The notes beneath the pieces are model-generated. The model did not search any database. It was not told the origin of the DNA and was given only the letters and a program-made list of their open reading frames with translations. Source: a virus. Taken from it: a stretch of 64,000 bases of DNA. The DNA lies in IMG/VR virus record IMGVR_UViG_3300045974_000429, positions 1-64,000 of that record. One strand, 5' to 3'. Both the position numbers and the translations under genes were made by a program. Every line of letters starts with the position of its first letter. Within the stretch, counting starts at the first letter, position 1. Below, piece after piece: positions 6,120 through 12,978 of the stretch.

Positions 6120-6146
6120 ATCTTTGCGCGGCCGCGCGGGAATTAC
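6120..6146 (-). promoter_or_regulatory. 27-bp phage promoter-like motif, copy 2
   Basis: Minus strand GTAATTCCCGCGCGGCCGCGCAAAGAT-N6-GTG. Confidence 0.6.
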
Positions 6147-6844
6147 TCCAGGCCCCAGAGCTTGTGGAGCTGCGCTCCCAGGCGCCACCTGGGGTGCGCC
6201 TGCACGAACTCCAGGCAACGGGCGAGCGCGGCCGAGTAGGCGGGCAGGGACGCCTCGCCTGGGGCACGGAGGTGGGTCGCCTCAAGCACCTGCGAGGTGA
6301 GCGGGTCGCGGGGCTGAACGAAGTAGTGCGCGGCCGGGAGGGCCACCTCCAGGGCCAGGAGCGCCTCGTCCGCCCAGTCATCCGCGCCGACGACCACCTT
6401 GACCTCCTCGCAAGCGCGAACCACCAAGGGAGGCGCTGCGAGCTTCGGGCTGACGGTCAGGTGATCGACGTAGGCCGGGAGCGGGCGGGTGCCGTTCGTC
6501 TCGACGGCGATCCGCCACCCGTTCCCGTGGAGCGCCTCGACGAGCTGCGCATCCACCTGGAGCAGCGGCTCGCCTCCCGTCAGGACGCACCAGCGGTCTT
6601 CTCCCGAAGCCTCCGGCCAGCGAACCTCCAACTTCGCCAGAATGTCCGCCACGGAGAGCTTGTCGCCGCCCAGAAAATCCGTGTCGCACCAGTGAGCGCA
6701 GGCCCCGGAGCCCTTTTCGCGGTCTTCGGGGCGCCCGCTCCAGAGGTTGCATCCAGAAAATCTGAGGAACACCGATTTCGCTCCCGCGCGAGAACCCTCG
6801 CCCTGGAGCGTGCAGAACACCGACTTGACGAGGTAGGTTTTCAC
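6143..6844 (-). CDS. queE: 7-carboxy-7-deazaguanine synthase (radical SAM)
   Basis: F.TLQGEG..AG...VFLRFSGCNLW, extended CX16CX3C cluster motif, LTGGEPLLQ, ETNGT, VSPK, QLHK. Confidence 0.93.
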   Translation of the reverse strand: MKTYLVKSVFCTLQGEGSRAGAKSVFLRFSGCNLWSGRPEDREKGSGACAHWCDTDFLGGDKLSVADILAKLEVRWPEASGEDRWCVLTGGEPLLQVDAQLVEALHGNGWRIAVETNGTRPLPAYVDHLTVSPKLAAPPLVVRACEEVKVVVGADDWADEALLALEVALPAAHYFVQPRDPLTSQVLEATHLRAPGEASLPAYSAALARCLEFVQAHPRWRLGAQLHKLWGLE

Positions 6845-7206
6845 GGCCGGTACTCGCAGCGGCTCGTGCAAGTTTCCTCGATGGCGACCGAGGCGAGGCA
6901 GGGGAGCGCGGGCGCGAGCTGATCGAAGATCCAGCGCGCAAGTTCCTCACTCGTGGGGTTCTCCAAGCCGGTCGTCTCGTTGAGGTGCCAGTGGTCGAGC
7001 TTGGCGTCCACGAGGGGCTGGAGAGCGGCCTTCATCTCGCCGTAGTCCAGGAGCATCCCTGCGCGAGGACCGGAGGTGGCGAGGCCCGAGCCTTCAACCG
7101 CGACCTCCCCCACCCAGGAGTGCCCGTGGAGCCTCGCGCACTTGCCGCCCTGGTGCGGGAGCCTGTGAGACGCTTCGAACCGGAACTTCTTCGTGAGCTT
7201 GAACAT
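6841..7206 (-). CDS. queD: 6-carboxy-5,6,7,8-tetrahydropterin synthase
   Basis: FRFEASHRLP...KCARLHGHSW, LDHWHLN, ENPTSEELA, IEET. Confidence 0.95.
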   Translation of the reverse strand: MFKLTKKFRFEASHRLPHQGGKCARLHGHSWVGEVAVEGSGLATSGPRAGMLLDYGEMKAALQPLVDAKLDHWHLNETTGLENPTSEELARWIFDQLAPALPCLASVAIEETCTSRCEYRP

Positions 7207-7937
7207 CACGCCTCCTGGACCTTGGGAGACTTCTTGGAGCCCTTCTTCTTGGGGGGCTCCTGGGGCAGCGGAACCAGCTTGGAGACAGCCGCAGCCTCGC
7301 AGAGCGCGACGAAGGCGCCGGCCGCGTTGCCTGGGCCGGTCATGCCGAACACCGCCAGGACGGCCTTGCAGGCGTCGGCCTGCGGGTCCGTCTCGACCTT
7401 GAAGACGAAGCGGCGCTCCTGGGCGGCGAGCCCCTCCGCCACGGCCGCCTCGTCGTTCTCGGTGGGAAGCGCGGCGGTGGCAGCGACCTCGGCCATCATG
7501 GAGGTGATGTCCTCGACCTCCGGCATCGTGAAGCCGGACAGCTCGATGTCGAGATCGGGAACCTGGGACAACCCGGAGAGCAGCTCGCCGAGCTTGTCGT
7601 AGTCCCACTCGCCGGAGATTTTATTGAGAGCGAGGTTCAGGAGGCGCGCTCGCTCGTCCGAGATGCCCGAGAGGAGCACGACCGGCACCTCGTAGGAGGT
7701 GATCTCCTTCGGAGACTTGCCTCCCTCCGCGAGCAACTCCCGGAGGGCCGCGAGGCGCTGGTGGCCGCCGATGAGGAGGCCGTCGTCCTCGCGCGCGACC
7801 GCGGGCTGAACGAACCCGAACTCCTTCAGGCTGTTCTTGAGCTTCTCCATCTCGTCGCCGCTGATCTGGCGCGGGTTGAGCGGGTCCGCTTGAAGGAACC
7901 CGAGGGGGCGGCTCTGCGGCTGCGGGAGATGAATCAC
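7206..7937 (-). CDS. ParB/Srx N-terminal domain protein within the modification cluster
   Basis: NPRQI...LKNSLKEFGFVQP...LIGGHQRL...LNLALNKISGEWD; GTG at 7937 overlaps the dpdA stop. Confidence 0.85.
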   Translation of the reverse strand: MIHLPQPQSRPLGFLQADPLNPRQISGDEMEKLKNSLKEFGFVQPAVAREDDGLLIGGHQRLAALRELLAEGGKSPKEITSYEVPVVLLSGISDERARLLNLALNKISGEWDYDKLGELLSGLSQVPDLDIELSGFTMPEVEDITSMMAEVAATAALPTENDEAAVAEGLAAQERRFVFKVETDPQADACKAVLAVFGMTGPGNAAGAFVALCEAAAVSKLVPLPQEPPKKKGSKKSPKVQEA

Positions 7938-9082
7938 GGCGACTCCTTCTTCTTGAGCGAGCGAGAGATCGAGGGCAACGAGTTCGGCGCGTCGCCGCTG
8001 ATGGTGGCGAGGTAGACGCTCATCCCGTTGGAGACGCAGGTCGCCGTGCCGTCGCCGTGCCCACCCATCGGCAGCGCGCCGCACGACAGGTAGAGGTTGT
8101 TCTTGGCGCGCCGCTTGTTCAGCCACTCCTCGGCGCGCTGCCACGCCTCCACGCTGGCGCCGCAGATCAGGTCGCGGTCGTAGCTGCCGGCGTGGCACTG
8201 CGACGGCCGGAGGCGATATTCGGAGAGAAGCGGCGCGGCCTTGAGGAGCGCGCGGTGATCCCGCATGTCGAGCTTCTCCCAGGCGCTCCGCTGGGAGTTG
8301 AACAGGGGCAAGCTGGCGTAGCGAAACGGCGCGGTCCAGGAGGACGAGTCCACGCTGTACCAGGGGAAGTTCTTGAGTGTGTTCCAAGAGGTCATCCCGA
8401 AACCGTGAACCCGCACATCGGGTGGCAATTGGGCGAATGACTGCCGCAGCCACGCAGCCACGAAATCGGGCCGGGCGGAATGCGGCACCATCCCGCCGAA
8501 GGCTAGGTAGTCGGTTCGTCCGAACCAATGCTGTAGATATTTCGGATCTTCCCCCAGATGAAAAACCGGCAATATCTGAACGCAGGACACCCGGCGGAGC
8601 AATTCCTCCGTGGCCCACTGCGTGGCCGCGGGGTCTCCAATTACGTCGAACCCGGCCGCGCAGGTGAAGAGATGCCCCCACCGATTCAACCACTCGGCGT
8701 AACCATCCAACCCAACCGGAGTTCCCGTGGTGAAAGCCGAGAATGCCCCAGAGTCGGCGAAGAGGTCCACCTTCCGATCCGGGAAACAGGCCGAGAGCAG
8801 CGCCTGAATATCCTCATCTCGGTAGTAGAAATAGGAAAGGAGCAGGCGAAGCGGGCGCCGAGGAGGGGCGCGCCCAATATTCGGCACGTCGCGCTGAATA
8901 GCTGGACCCGTAGGCATTCCGAAGTAGATCCGCCCTCCAGAGGCCAACGCCTGCTCACATTGGGTGGGCGGCGCAAGCGCCTCCATGGAACCGCCGCCAC
9001 GCCCCAAATAACCCGGCGTATCGCTCATGGCGCGCATATCAGCCCCCCCCCGTCCCTGCGCGTCACCGAGATAGATTTGCAC
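7934..9082 (-). CDS. dpdA: DpdA/TGT-fold deazaguanine DNA transglycosylase
   Basis: LFADSGAFSA, FDVIGD, ILPVFH, LAFGGMV, VHGFG, YSVDSSSW; embedded among que genes; GTG at 9082 after AGGAG (start uncertain). Confidence 0.8.
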   Translation of the reverse strand: MQIYLGDAQGRGGADMRAMSDTPGYLGRGGGSMEALAPPTQCEQALASGGRIYFGMPTGPAIQRDVPNIGRAPPRRPLRLLLSYFYYRDEDIQALLSACFPDRKVDLFADSGAFSAFTTGTPVGLDGYAEWLNRWGHLFTCAAGFDVIGDPAATQWATEELLRRVSCVQILPVFHLGEDPKYLQHWFGRTDYLAFGGMVPHSARPDFVAAWLRQSFAQLPPDVRVHGFGMTSWNTLKNFPWYSVDSSSWTAPFRYASLPLFNSQRSAWEKLDMRDHRALLKAAPLLSEYRLRPSQCHAGSYDRDLICGASVEAWQRAEEWLNKRRAKNNLYLSCGALPMGGHGDGTATCVSNGMSVYLATISGDAPNSLPSISRSLKKKESP

Positions 9083-9165
9083 AACCCACTCCTGATGCTC
9101 TGAGGTGACCCGTCGGCGCCCAATGAGTTGGGATGCGAATAGGTGCAGCCAAGATATATTATCAT
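9025..9165 (-). CDS. Short ORF (46 aa) coupled to queC, overlapping the dpdA 5' end
   Basis: ATG overlaps the queC TGA; MIIYLG start resembles the QIYLG/RIYFG/SVYLA segments of DpdA. Confidence 0.4.
   Translation of the reverse strand: MIIYLGCTYSHPNSLGADGSPQSIRSGLCKSISVTRRDGGGLICAP
9043..9051 (-). repeat. G9 homopolymer in the 5' region of dpdA
   Basis: Nine consecutive C on the + strand. Confidence 0.9.
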
Positions 9166-9848
9166 CTCTCCGCTGGGTCCGACTCGCCGGCCTCTGCGAA
9201 TCCCTTGGCGCGCAGCACGCAGGCCGCGCAAACGCCGCAGCCGGGGCGCTTGCCCTCGTAGCAGGTCCGCGATAGCGCGAGCGCCTCCCAGCAGCCGGGG
9301 AGCCGCCTCGCGAGCTTCACGGACTCGGCCTTGGTGATGTGCATGAGGGGGGTGTGGATGCGGAGCGGGCCGGCGCTGGATGGCATCGCGAGCGTGAGCG
9401 CCTTCTCCATCGCGTCGATGAACTCGCGCCGGCAATCCGGGTAGCCCGAGTAGTCGGTCTGGCAGACGCCGGTGTAGATGTCTCTCGCACCTTCCCGTAC
9501 CGCGATGGCCGCGGCGACCCCGAGCAGGAGCGCGTTGCGCCCCGGCACGAACGAGGAGGGGAGCCCCTGCGGCATGGCGGCGTCCGGGATGCCTCCTTCC
9601 CAGGTCAGCGGCTTGGAGGCGTCGGTGAGGGCGCTGGAGGTGGTGAGCTTGCCGAGGGCTTCCAGCTCCACGCGCTCGAAGGGAACCCCGGCCAGCTTGG
9701 CGATCTCCTCCGCGGAAGCGCGCTCAGCCACGTGCCGCTGGCCGTAGCCGATGCTGACGGCGTGGACGCCGTCGTGCAGCGTCTTCGCGAGGTAGAGGGT
9801 GGTGGTGGAATCCTGGCCGCCGGAAAGCAGAACGACTGCGCGCGTCAT
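9162..9848 (-). CDS. queC: 7-cyano-7-deazaguanine synthase
   Basis: AVVLLSGGQDS, YGQRH, FVPGRN, SGYPDCR, TCY...CGVCAACVLR. Confidence 0.96.
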   Translation of the reverse strand: MTRAVVLLSGGQDSTTTLYLAKTLHDGVHAVSIGYGQRHVAERASAEEIAKLAGVPFERVELEALGKLTTSSALTDASKPLTWEGGIPDAAMPQGLPSSFVPGRNALLLGVAAAIAVREGARDIYTGVCQTDYSGYPDCRREFIDAMEKALTLAMPSSAGPLRIHTPLMHITKAESVKLARRLPGCWEALALSRTCYEGKRPGCGVCAACVLRAKGFAEAGESDPAER

Positions 9849-10486
9849 GCGAGACTCCTTGTGAGCAGGGAGAGAAGCTCAGCTCTGGCCGGTGCGTCGC
9901 TGCGGAAGCAGCCGAGCATGGTCGAGGTGGTGGTGATGTGGCCCGGAGCCTTCACACCCCTCATGCTCATGCAGAGGTGCTCGGCCTGGAGGATGACGCC
10001 GACGCCCAAGGGGCGGAGCTGGCACTGGAGGTGCTCGGCGACCTGCTCCGTGATCTGCTCCTGGGTCTGGAAGCGGTGCGCGAAATGCTCCACGACTCGG
10101 GCGAGCTTGGAGAGCCCGACGATCTGCTTGCTCTCGCCGGGCAGATAACCCACCGCCGCGGATCCCACGAAGGGGAGGCCGTGGTGGGCGCAGACCGAGT
10201 AGAACGGGATCTTGCCGACCGCAATGATCGCGTCGTAATTCCCGTTCGGGAACGTCGTCAGCTTGGGAGGCGTTTCCCGCTGCGTGTGCCAGGAGAGCAG
10301 GAACTTCGCCACGCGGTCGGGGCTGTCCTTGAGATGCGGATCTTGGAGGTCGTAGCCGAGAGCTTGGATGATCTGCGCCCAAGCCAGGGCGATGACGGCC
10401 TGCCGTTCCGCGTGCGGGTCTTGCACCATGCCAGAGCACCTCTTGCCGGAAACCTTAGCGCGCTTCACGCGCCCGTGTCTAGTCAT
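9845..10486 (-). CDS. folE: GTP cyclohydrolase I
   Basis: SPDRVAK, FYSVCAHHGLPF, VGLSKLAR, QTQEQIT, AEHLCMSMRGV. Confidence 0.95.
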   Translation of the reverse strand: MTRHGRVKRAKVSGKRCSGMVQDPHAERQAVIALAWAQIIQALGYDLQDPHLKDSPDRVAKFLLSWHTQRETPPKLTTFPNGNYDAIIAVGKIPFYSVCAHHGLPFVGSAAVGYLPGESKQIVGLSKLARVVEHFAHRFQTQEQITEQVAEHLQCQLRPLGVGVILQAEHLCMSMRGVKAPGHITTTSTMLGCFRSDAPARAELLSLLTRSLA

Positions 10487-11108
10487 CTGCGCCCCCTTCC
10501 GAATAGCGAGTATTGCCGCCGCGCAAGATCCAACGGCGCAACAGTCACAGCGAATCGCGAGGCTGAGGTTCCATCGAAGCTGTCTGCTCCAGCAGCCGCG
10601 CACCGCGCGATCCTGCGCGCAGTATTCACCCGCCCAACGTGGAGCCAGCAACCCCGCTCCCGCGCGAGGCTGCCCCAAGCCTCCATCGTCGAAAGCTTCC
10701 AATCAGTGCTGCCTCCAATAAATATTCCAACTCGCGGCCCGAGGTACGGCCGCACATCCGCAGCGCGCATTCCATCCTGCACAGCCAGTAGAGCCTTCGG
10801 AGCACTCCCAAGAACTCGGTCAACCCAAGAAATTGAGAGAGAGAGAGAGAAGCTGAACCGCCGGCTACAATATCGGGAAGAACTACCCAATCAGCTCCGG
10901 CTCCGAGGACGCGCAAGCTTCTCTCGAACCCGACGAAGTCGAACTCTCGCTTCTGCTGGTAGGCAGACCACGCTCCATTATCCAGGGCATAGAGAAACCC
11001 AGCCAAAGGCTTCTGGCGCGTCTGAGGCGACATGAGAAGGCGCCAACCGGCCACTCTCAACGCTTGGAGATTTCGCCTCGTTCCGGTGATTGTGGCATAA
11101 GCAATCAC
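10483..11108 (-). pseudogene. Second TGT-fold/DpdA-like gene, frameshifted at (TC)8
   Basis: 5' half has YALDNGAW and LPDIVAGG; 3' half in another frame has AVQDGM, IFIGGST, HVGRVN and DSFDGTS; removing one TC gives a single 207-aa ORF overlapping both neighbours. Confidence 0.8.
10835..10850. repeat. (GA)8/(TC)8 microsatellite at the frameshift
   Basis: GAGAGAGAGAGAGAGA on the + strand. Confidence 0.95.
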
Positions 11109-12775
11109 GCCACGCTCACGCGGCCCTTGTCTACCGTCAGCCGCAGCTTCGCGGGGAGCCGCTCCGCCAGCTCGGGACTGTGCGTGATGACGACCACGCA
11201 GCGGGTGCGCGCCAATTCCTCCAGCGCCTCGGACACGGCCGCCAGTCCGTCCGGGTCCAGCGCATCGGCGACCTCGTCCAGGAAGAGCGTTCCGGGCGCC
11301 TTCCCGGCCGCGGCCGCCGCGATCTCGGAGAGCGCCAGGAGCAGCGCCACGTCCACGCGGCGCCGCTCGCCGCCCGACAGGGAATCGTATTCCCGGAGCT
11401 GGCCGCCGACCGGCCCGAGCTTGATGGACAGGACATCCGACTGCCCGCCGGCCTTCTTCTCGGAGTAGGCCGAGAGCTTCATCTCCATCGCGCCGCGAGA
11501 GAGCCTGGACAGCCAGGAGGCGCCCGCGCTCTCCAGGCCGGCGAGCGCGCGAGCGAGGACGTGGGCGCGGGCGCCCTTCATCCCGAGCACCTTATCCACG
11601 GCGCGCAGCAGGTCGGCCCGAGCCTGCTCCGCGGCCACGCGCGCCTGAGCGCCCGCGCGGTCTTCCAGAACGGCCAACCGGGCGGTGGAGGCGCGCTGCA
11701 GGGCTGCATCCGCGCGAGCGTGAGCCTCCGCCCGAGCCGTCACGGCCGCCACCTCCTGCCGGAGCGCCTGCGCGCGCCGCCGGAGGGCGTCGGCCTCCTC
11801 GTCCAGCTCCTCCGCCTCCTGGCGGGCCTGGGCGGCCTCCTGGCGGGCTTGCTGCTCGGCTGCTCGGGCGCGGGTGGCCTCCGCGGCGACCAAGGCCGTG
11901 AGCTGCTCCACGAGGTCCGCGGGGACGTGCTGGCGGCACGTCGGGCACTCGGCCTTGCCGGAGAGCGCCCCGAGACGCTGCGTGAGCCCGCGGAGGTCCG
12001 CGCCCTTGCCGGCCATGCCGGAGAGCGCTTGCTGCTCCCTGCCGCGAGCCGCGCGGGCTTCCTTCTGGGCGTCCGCGGCGAGCTTCTCCTGCTTGGCGGC
12101 TTTCTCCTGGAGCAGCTCCTTGTCGAGCGCGGGAGGAGGCGCGGCCTGAACTTCTGCGGCGGCGGCGGCGACCGCCTTCTCGGCGGCCTCCAGCTTGGCG
12201 GCAGCCACCGCGAGGTCGCGCTCCGCGATGCCGGCCTTCGTCTCCGCCTGCGCCAGCTCCGCCCGGCAGCGGACGAGGGCGGCGTCGAACCTATCGATGC
12301 CGAGCAGGCGCTCCATGAGCCGCTTGCGCTCCGCATCCGTGGCGGTCGAGAAGTGGGCGGCGTCGGAAGAGGAGAAAACGTGCGTGCGGCGCCAAACCTC
12401 CCACGGCCCAACGATCTGCTCCAGGGCCTCCTGCGCCTTGGTGGCCGTGTCGTAGATCGTGGATTGCTGGCCGGGGACCGTCCAGAAGAGAGAAGTTTTC
12501 CCGCCGTCCGAGCGGTCGCGCTGCGCTTCCAGCTCGCCGATGCCGCTCGACATCAGGGCTCCGGCCTGGACCGCTGCCTGTCCCTTCGCGCCATCCCGCC
12601 AGGGGGCGGAGCCGCGCAAGCTCTTGCCCCAGAGCGCGGCCGAGACGGCTTCCACGAGGCTGCTCTTGCCGCTGCCGTTGGGGCCCGCGACCGTGACGAG
12701 GCCGGCAGGCGGCAGCGAGATGATCGTCCGGTCGTGGGAGGTGAAGCCGGAGAGGGCGATCTTGTCGATGTTCAC
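11105..12775 (-). CDS. sbcC: SbcC/Rad50-like ATPase
   Basis: GPNGSGKSS Walker A, coiled coil with CPTC hook, LSGGE signature, LFLDEVADALD, VITH. Confidence 0.92.
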   Translation of the reverse strand: MNIDKIALSGFTSHDRTIISLPPAGLVTVAGPNGSGKSSLVEAVSAALWGKSLRGSAPWRDGAKGQAAVQAGALMSSGIGELEAQRDRSDGGKTSLFWTVPGQQSTIYDTATKAQEALEQIVGPWEVWRRTHVFSSSDAAHFSTATDAERKRLMERLLGIDRFDAALVRCRAELAQAETKAGIAERDLAVAAAKLEAAEKAVAAAAAEVQAAPPPALDKELLQEKAAKQEKLAADAQKEARAARGREQQALSGMAGKGADLRGLTQRLGALSGKAECPTCRQHVPADLVEQLTALVAAEATRARAAEQQARQEAAQARQEAEELDEEADALRRRAQALRQEVAAVTARAEAHARADAALQRASTARLAVLEDRAGAQARVAAEQARADLLRAVDKVLGMKGARAHVLARALAGLESAGASWLSRLSRGAMEMKLSAYSEKKAGGQSDVLSIKLGPVGGQLREYDSLSGGERRRVDVALLLALSEIAAAAAGKAPGTLFLDEVADALDPDGLAAVSEALEELARTRCVVVITHSPELAERLPAKLRLTVDKGRVSVA

Positions 12776-12978
12776 GCGCCCTCCAGCCGCGCAATGATCT
12801 CCGCCGCGATCTCGATGACGGCCTCGCCGGGGTCGGCCGACACCATCAGGAGCCAGCCGGCGAACAGGATGGCGTCCTCCTTGGAGATCGGAACACATGC
12901 CGGGGGCGGCTTAAGGATCAAGACCTGCCCGTGAGCCTTGCCGCCGCGCGCCACCATGTACTTGTTGAACGTCTCCAT
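12772..12978 (-). CDS. Small hypothetical protein (68 aa)
   Basis: ATG at 12978; start and stop overlap both neighbours. Confidence 0.6.
   Translation of the reverse strand: METFNKYMVARGGKAHGQVLILKPPPACVPISKEDAILFAGWLLMVSADPGEAVIEIAAEIIARLEGA

Follow-up and report, generated by a model that had tools for sequence, protein, structure and literature searches.

Gene X of IMG/VR virus record IMGVR_UViG_3300045974_000429 is best described as a compact DpdA-like transglycosylase gene, and its reading frame is interrupted at a (TC)8 microsatellite. The frameshift is real. It arose by slippage in a hot-spot tract, in an accessory DpdA-like gene of a phage 7-deazaguanine cluster. The locus may behave as a contingency locus, in which an ON and an OFF state are both present and are sorted by selection; a probability of about 0.45 is given to this reading. 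The window analysed here is the first 64,000 nucleotides of the record, a single linear contig of 83,744 bases with 68% G+C and a CheckV completeness of 88%. All genes of the cluster lie on the minus strand.

Frameshift at the (TC)8 tract

Gene X occupies positions 10483-11108. At 10835-10850 the plus strand reads GAGAGAGAGAGAGAGA, and the coding minus strand carries (TC)8. Two minus-strand open reading frames (ORFs) meet at the tract and overlap there, one at 10626-11108 (160 amino acids) and the other at 10483-10890 (135 amino acids). The first, the N-terminal half, matches positions 1-93 of the 212-position profile phrog_15826 with an E-value of 8.8e-13, and the C-terminal half matches positions 88-191 with an E-value of 2e-28. 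Since the two halves match consecutive parts of the same profile, the frame changes exactly at the tract.

Reading the tract as (TC)7 restores a single protein of 207 amino acids, made up of 86 residues, the peptide SLSLS and a further 116 residues. This protein aligns without gaps to 22 homologues, which read S-L-[E/D/A/R]-L-[S/T] at the site, and its length is typical of the phrog_15826 family. The 86 N-terminal codons (10851-11108), in the original frame, encode the motifs ALDNGAW, with its invariant Asp, and LPDIV, with its PD. The 116 C-terminal codons (10483-10834), in the shifted frame, encode the motifs AVQDG, IGGST, HVGRVN and SFDGTS. Tracts of four, seven or ten units keep the gene in frame, and tracts of eight or nine do not. 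In the OFF allele the frame of the N-terminal half continues to a stop at 10626, which adds an out-of-frame tail of 69 amino acids.

The restored gene fits closely between its neighbours. Its GTG start shares the four-nucleotide overlap GTGA (11105-11108) with the stop of an sbcC-like gene, and its stop shares ATGA (10483-10486) with the ATG of folE. An earlier note on this DNA had reported that the first gene of the deazaguanine cluster is split exactly at (TC)8, that (TC)7 would give one ORF of 207 amino acids overlapping both sbcC and folE, and that no other long dinucleotide repeat was noticed in the window. These observations are correct in every detail, and the last of them extends to the whole genome. 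The interpretation placed on them is partly supported.

The same note saw no lesion besides the frameshift, and the alignment bears this out. Gene X keeps all 10 invariant columns of its family and all 26 columns with a conservation of at least 90%; of the 45 columns with at least 80%, it keeps 44. The share of conserved columns that it keeps is 0.98, compared with a family median of 0.92 (range 0.82-1.0). Apart from the frameshift, the gene looks functional.

The tract lies far outside what base composition would produce by chance. Neither the window nor the whole 83,744-base genome contains another dinucleotide repeat of more than four units. Markov models of orders 1 to 3 fitted to the genome predict between 1.5e-5 and 1.6e-4 runs of the GA/TC type with eight or more units per genome. 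A cruder count that takes in every dinucleotide type finds eight units in 3 of 200 simulated genomes, almost always as GC/CG runs. Given the peptide SLSLS, the probability of drawing codons that make the repeat is 3.6e-4 under the codon usage of the genome and 1.5e-3 under that of the gene itself.

The longest homopolymer of the genome is a G9 run at 9043-9051 on the minus strand, five nucleotides upstream of ATG 9037 of the canonical dpdA gene. The database gene call for this dpdA (367 amino acids) starts at ATG 9037; a longer ORF begins at GTG 9082, and the G9 run also lies in frame within it. The Markov models predict 0.2-3.2 C9/G9 runs per genome, and the run taken alone is not remarkable. 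Even so, each of the two transglycosylase genes carries one of the genome's two longest simple repeats.

Another assembler recovered the (TC)8 allele as well. Over 9431-12500, tract included, a Logan contig of run X1 (5195 nucleotides, depth 23.1) has no differences and no gaps relative to the phage. Run X1 is possibly the source sample, in which case the contig is not independent sampling. As a second assembler reproduces (TC)8, it is the majority allele and not the quirk of one assembler. Short contigs identical to the phage, for example over 9505-9658 and 10325-10475 with no differences, are also present at depth 2-4 in run X2, a second pond metagenome that belongs to another study; none of them covers 10521-10871, the stretch around the tract. 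The phage is therefore present in more than one sample.

Identity and distribution of gene X

From sequence and modelled structure, gene X is best described as a member of a compact subfamily (about 205 amino acids) of the DpdA/TGT superfamily, one that is so far uncurated. Neither half of the gene gives a Pfam or NCBIfam match above cut-off, including PF01702 and the NCBIfam DpdA model. PF01702 matches 4 of 56 family members weakly (best E 1.9e-4). In 3 of 10 viral records, the model of canonical phage DpdA, phrog_887, weakly matches a stretch within X (E 4e-4 to 1.3e-3). A search of PDB sequences with the family profile returned noise only (E at least 0.8). DUF3151 matches 9 of the 56 members with a best E-value of 0.0016, far short of its cut-off, and was disregarded.

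A first indication comes from the predicted fold. The protein modelled was P0001, the closest intact homologue, which is 75% identical to the C-terminal half of X. Its AlphaFold (AF2) model is an eight-strand beta/alpha barrel with a predicted local distance difference test (pLDDT) score of 86.3 and a predicted TM-score (pTM) of 0.85. The best Foldseek match in the PDB is the TGT of Z. mobilis (E 7.7e-6, TMq 0.61). In a viral fold library, phage proteins named queuine tRNA-ribosyltransferases rank directly below a fusion relative of 499 amino acids, and DpdA3 of phage phiST is found at rank 50 (E 8.8e-3). VIA-align places TGT (Z 15.2), ArcTGT (14.9), the bacterial DNA preQ0 insertase DpdA 7UI4 (14.5) and Cap10 (14.4) among its top ten. 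TGT, ArcTGT and DpdA 7UI4 each superpose with a root-mean-square deviation of 2.9-3.0 over 204-206 residues, and these three and Cap10 have the lowest deviations. The Z-scores of unrelated TIM barrels, among them those of pyruvate kinase and ribulose-phosphate epimerase, tie with theirs (14.4-15.4). Because such barrels score equally well, the fold alone is not decisive, and it is the sequence evidence that settles the identity of X.

This evidence is provided by profile-profile comparison. An hhalign comparison of 56 X-family members (alignment A5) with 20 homologues of the DpdA encoded in the window (alignment A4) gives a probability of 92% and an E-value of 6.6e-7 over 177 columns. With a shallower alignment (A2) the probability is 75% and the E-value 2.5e-5, over 60 columns. 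The paired motifs, with the X family named first, are DNGAW and DSGAF, PDIV and DVIGD, VQDG and FHLGE, GG and GG, HVGRVN and HGFGMT, and SFDGTS and SVDSSSW.

Three aspartates, D47, D83 and D182 in P0001 numbering, are invariant in the 56 members. They align to the invariant D95, D131 and D230 of the DpdA family of the window, and all three positions are kept in the window's copy of X. In bacterial DpdA, according to PMC10164549, Asp95, Asp130 and Asp256 serve in general acid/base catalysis, in base recognition and as the nucleophile. The aspartates of the X family fit these three roles in the same order. Where the DpdA alignment has an invariant His160, which corresponds to the base-bonding His181 of bacterial DpdA, the X family has an invariant Gln114. 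DpdA2 is likewise described without a base-bonding His in PMC6884629.

Compared with phage DpdA1 and bacterial DpdA (PDB 7UI4), as described in PMC6884629 and PMC10164549, the X family shares the TIM barrel, three conserved Asp, a Gly-Gly loop and the association with preQ0 genes. It differs from them in size, about 205 amino acids against about 300-410, and in having Gln where DpdA has the base-reading His. The earlier note had called X DpdA-like, and fold, profile-profile homology, conserved Asp and QueC neighbourhood all support the assignment. Base-exchange activity is accordingly the predicted function of the protein.

DpdA4 (DUF6610, PF20314) of archaeal viruses was considered as another possible home for the family. 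Like X, it is a small divergent TGT-like protein (PMC10516641), and DUF6610 is the nearest named cluster of X in a feature search of the ESM Atlas (score 0.89). X proteins, in contrast, occur in phages and prophages of bacteria, and none of the 56 members matches PF20314 at E-values up to 10. Membership was rejected.

The family is large. At E-values up to 1e-3, a word-indexed search finds 1204 matching proteins, mostly of 202-212 amino acids, and an exhaustive search finds 2965 matching representatives of 50%-identity clusters. Of 81 viral loci, 35 encode QueC within the flanks fetched around X, as do 17 of 80 metagenome loci, and in most of these queC is the immediate neighbour of X. These neighbours are genuine QueC proteins (PF06508, E 1.6e-42 for a representative); the representatives submitted to Pfam were picked by greedy ORF calling, which is crude in high-GC DNA. 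In bacterial genomes X usually stands alone, and 1 of 80 such loci has QueC nearby. These genomes belong to Paraburkholderia, Caballeronia, Pseudomonas, sphingomonads and others, and in the taxa named X is common in prophage-like regions.

Canonical DpdA and X rarely occur together. A canonical DpdA homologue is accompanied by an X-like gene in 1 of 80 DpdA-bearing viral loci (L189). Here (L189:1569-11661) queC is directly followed by the X-like gene, whose product shares 30% identity with P0001, and folE is nearby. No canonical DpdA was found with the phrog_887 model in the 10 viral records searched, 7 of which are at least 85% complete and 5 of which are rated 100% complete; weak signals arose solely inside X. 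In the five genomes rated 100% complete, X is the sole TGT-like gene by this model, and three of the five are also without QueC.

Several members depart from the usual architecture. The X domain forms one end of fusion proteins such as P0127 (912 amino acids), P0266 (607), P0199 (556), P0169 (447) and BFVD entry A0A0F7L9Z1 (499). The short forms P0002, P0010 and P0055 start at an internal Met. Members from cultured phages are found in Erythrobacter phage vB_EliS_R6L (gp10; L001) and phage ZS04, with 52% identity. R6L gp10 is annotated as a hypothetical protein, and the ZS04 member falls under the annotation "DarB-like antirestriction protein". Next to R6L gp10 lie genes for a PAPS-reductase-like protein and a DNA methylase, and the 14 kb viewed contain no annotated que genes.

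A literature search found neither the X family nor a repeat switch in dpdA described; the lists of DpdA homologues in the supplements of PMC6884629 and PMC10516641 could include members. Whether or not the tract switches, the analysis defines a large DpdA-like family of about 205 amino acids that no curated model covers. Its proteins are candidates for the missing transglycosylase in phages that carry QueC without a known DpdA.

Possible reversible switching and other explanations

As a contingency locus, the system would work in the following way. Canonical DpdA and, as the second, X would be two DNA base-exchange enzymes encoded in one complete preQ0 cluster. Slipped-strand mispairing in the lineage-specific (TC)n tract added one unit, from seven to eight, which leaves X OFF in the sequenced population. 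The frame is lost once 91 residues have been read, and the remaining half of the barrel, with the Asp presumed to be the nucleophile, is not produced. Losing one unit or gaining two would restore the frame. ON and OFF genomes would thus interconvert at an elevated rate, and selection would choose between the states.

Switching of X would not abolish modification, because the canonical phage dpdA (7934-9082; phrog_887, E 9.6e-42) is intact in the same cluster. The earlier note, in which the phage toggles one base-exchange enzyme on and off to hedge between ordinary and modification-dependent restriction, had missed this gene, and its picture has to be corrected. Canonical DpdA would stay on, and switching of X would alter how far deazaguanine modification extends or the sequence context in which it occurs. 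The case for a switch rests on the improbability and uniqueness of the tract, the lack of any other lesion and the kind of gene in which the tract is found.

Several points weigh against a switch. A single allele, OFF, is known, and it is known from consensus contigs. Eight dinucleotide units are short for a classical contingency tract. The locus was selected post hoc out of a very large scan, which makes the chance statistics weaker. Relatives give no sign of the tract either. The site was located by alignment coordinates as codons 89-98 in 241 related loci (81 viral, 80 metagenomic and 80 genomic); none has five or more TC/CT units there, and the maximum of four is reached in 3 loci. In all 241, one in-frame match spans the site, and 2 of these matches contain a stop somewhere. 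A search of viral, metagenome and genome contigs for the site pattern, D-[IV]-V-A-G-G followed by 7 free bases and five TC units, gave no matches; relatives with other anchor residues escape the pattern. The earlier note had proposed to check whether related phages keep a TC tract here, and had counted its absence from them, with the gene simply a recent pseudogene, against a switch; the outcome of this check is negative. The test is a weak one, as the closest relatives are at most 75% identical in X and at most 50% in DpdA at the protein level. The absence of the tract from all relatives makes it lineage-specific and says nothing about its stability.

Composition and redundancy count against a switch as well. 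The G+C content of X is 0.596, compared with 0.683 for the genome. At third codon positions (GC3) it is 0.59 in both halves, compared with 0.79-0.90 for six neighbours (0.85-0.90 for folE, queC, queD, sbcC and sbcD, and a lowish 0.79 for dpdA). In relatives the gene normally has the composition of its flanks (median difference -0.002); just 1 of 122 deviates from them as strongly as X does. By composition, X looks like a recent import. It is also redundant in kind with the intact canonical dpdA. Redundancy and foreign composition together give the profile of a dispensable recent import that could simply decay.

Such one-way decay is roughly as likely as an evolved switch; it too falls short of even odds. 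Gene X would then be a young pseudogene, a recently imported redundant gene that was frameshifted at a slippery tract born by chance, with no switch. Besides the intact dpdA and the foreign composition, this explanation can draw on the lack of either tract or split in the 241 relatives and on the rarity of the DpdA and X combination. It can also draw on the family motif S-L-x-L-S, which itself favours short TC runs; runs of 2-4 units are found at the site in 83 of the 241 relatives. A perfect 16-nucleotide repeat, however, requires several specific synonymous choices plus a substitution. The gene has no second lesion, with 44 of 45 conserved columns kept, and the OFF allele is the consensus at a depth of about 23x without further decay. 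Even in a decaying gene the tract would revert at an elevated rate.

It is improbable that the true genome carries (TC)7 and an intact X, with the eighth unit introduced by sequencing or assembly. Dinucleotide repeats are prone to stutter in libraries based on the polymerase chain reaction and to errors in some long-read chemistries, and the library type of run X1 is unrecorded. Against such an artefact, the Logan contig, from an independent assembler, agrees with the phage over 9431-12500, and a 16-nucleotide tract fits well within a short read. Programmed recoding is less probable still. In that case (TC)8 would be the working form, and full-length protein would arise either when the ribosome slips (+2/-1) on UCU/CUC codons or when the polymerase slips during transcription. 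Judging from the sequence, a P-site tRNA could re-pair perfectly two nucleotides downstream on a dinucleotide repeat, which is the shift required, but the 90 nucleotides downstream hold no stimulatory RNA structure (z = 0.13; 105 of 200 shuffles fold as well), and none of the 241 relatives has a frameshift here. Least probable is a split enzyme, in which the half-barrels are made separately and then assemble. The break does fall between beta4 and beta5 of the modelled barrel, but the sole start of the C-terminal half is a TTG at 10890, buried in the ORF of the N-terminal half, which itself would carry the 69-residue tail. All 241 relatives, moreover, are single chains.

A more elaborate form of the contingency reading involves both transglycosylases. 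X would be switched by (TC)n, and canonical DpdA would be tuned or switched by G9. The phage could then pass through several heritable, reversible modification states, hedging between ordinary restriction enzymes on one side and Dag-type glycosylases and type IV enzymes on the other. This two-enzyme system is rather unlikely.

Comparison with known systems and layout of the cluster

Simple repeats that switch genes are familiar from bacteria. In bacterial phasevarions, slipped-strand repeats lie in mod/hsd DNA methyltransferase genes, and the genes are ON or OFF according to repeat number modulo 3. Gene X resembles them in having a slipped-strand repeat within a DNA-modification gene. Phasevarions differ in being bacterial and methylation-based, in having regulatory consequences and in having tracts that vary between sibling strains. 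A phage example can be found in the receptor-binding genes of Campylobacter phages, which carry polyG tracts. The likeness to X lies in a repeat-driven frameshift in a phage gene and in population heterogeneity; the tracts of the Campylobacter phages, unlike that of X, are homopolymers, and they affect host recognition rather than DNA modification.

The closest parallel is the agt gene of coliphage T2. An A9 repeat in this gene has been shown experimentally to be a contingency locus that reverts about 1000-fold faster than a point mutant (Gomez, Barrick, Waters; bioRxiv 10.1101/2025.10.21.683753). A T2 phage that loses the modification exchanges one type of restriction for a different one (same preprint). 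T2 agt and X have in common that frameshifts come from a simple repeat within a phage gene for DNA hypermodification. In T2 the repeat is a homopolymer and the gene encodes a glucosyltransferase, whereas X has a dinucleotide repeat in the gene of a DpdA-like transglycosylase. X differs further in that one allele has been seen and in that a second, canonical enzyme remains on. A similar trade-off has recently been shown experimentally for dpdA in another preprint: phages that lose the gene escape the Dag1 glycosylase and become sensitive to restriction (bioRxiv 10.1101/2025.10.29.685425).

Given T2 agt, repeat-gated phage DNA modification is no longer new as a concept. What would be new, if true, is a dinucleotide tract in a 7-deazaguanine transglycosylase gene and a two-transglycosylase cluster with G9 at the gene start of the other enzyme. 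If the tract switches, phage contingency loci would extend from the glucosyltransferase homopolymers of T-even phages to a dinucleotide repeat in a 7-deazaguanine system. Phages could then vary the pattern of hypermodification, and not merely its presence, by toggling a second transglycosylase.

The genes around X follow an operon-like order on the minus strand: sbcD-like, sbcC-like, X, folE, queC, canonical dpdA, ParB-like, queD and a queE-like radical-SAM gene. The sbcC-like ATPase gene (11105-12898), folE for GTP cyclohydrolase I (9845-10486) and queC (9162-9848; PF06508, E 1.6e-63) were identified with Pfam. The queD gene (6847-7197) is recognised by a PTPS domain match, and the queE-like radical-SAM ORF (6143-6871) by a weak match. 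The preQ0 cluster around X is complete with folE, queD, queE and queC, of which queE is assigned by this weak match only.

In the clade of the window's DpdA (alignment A4), the consensus N-terminus has two short YLG segments ahead of the barrel. Between dpdA and queD, within the deazaguanine cluster, lies a gene with a ParB N-terminal domain (7206-8015, minus strand; weak match, E 6.5e-4). A scan for promoters and terminators marks a promoter-like site within X at 11006-10977 (9/12), along with one weak terminator-like site.

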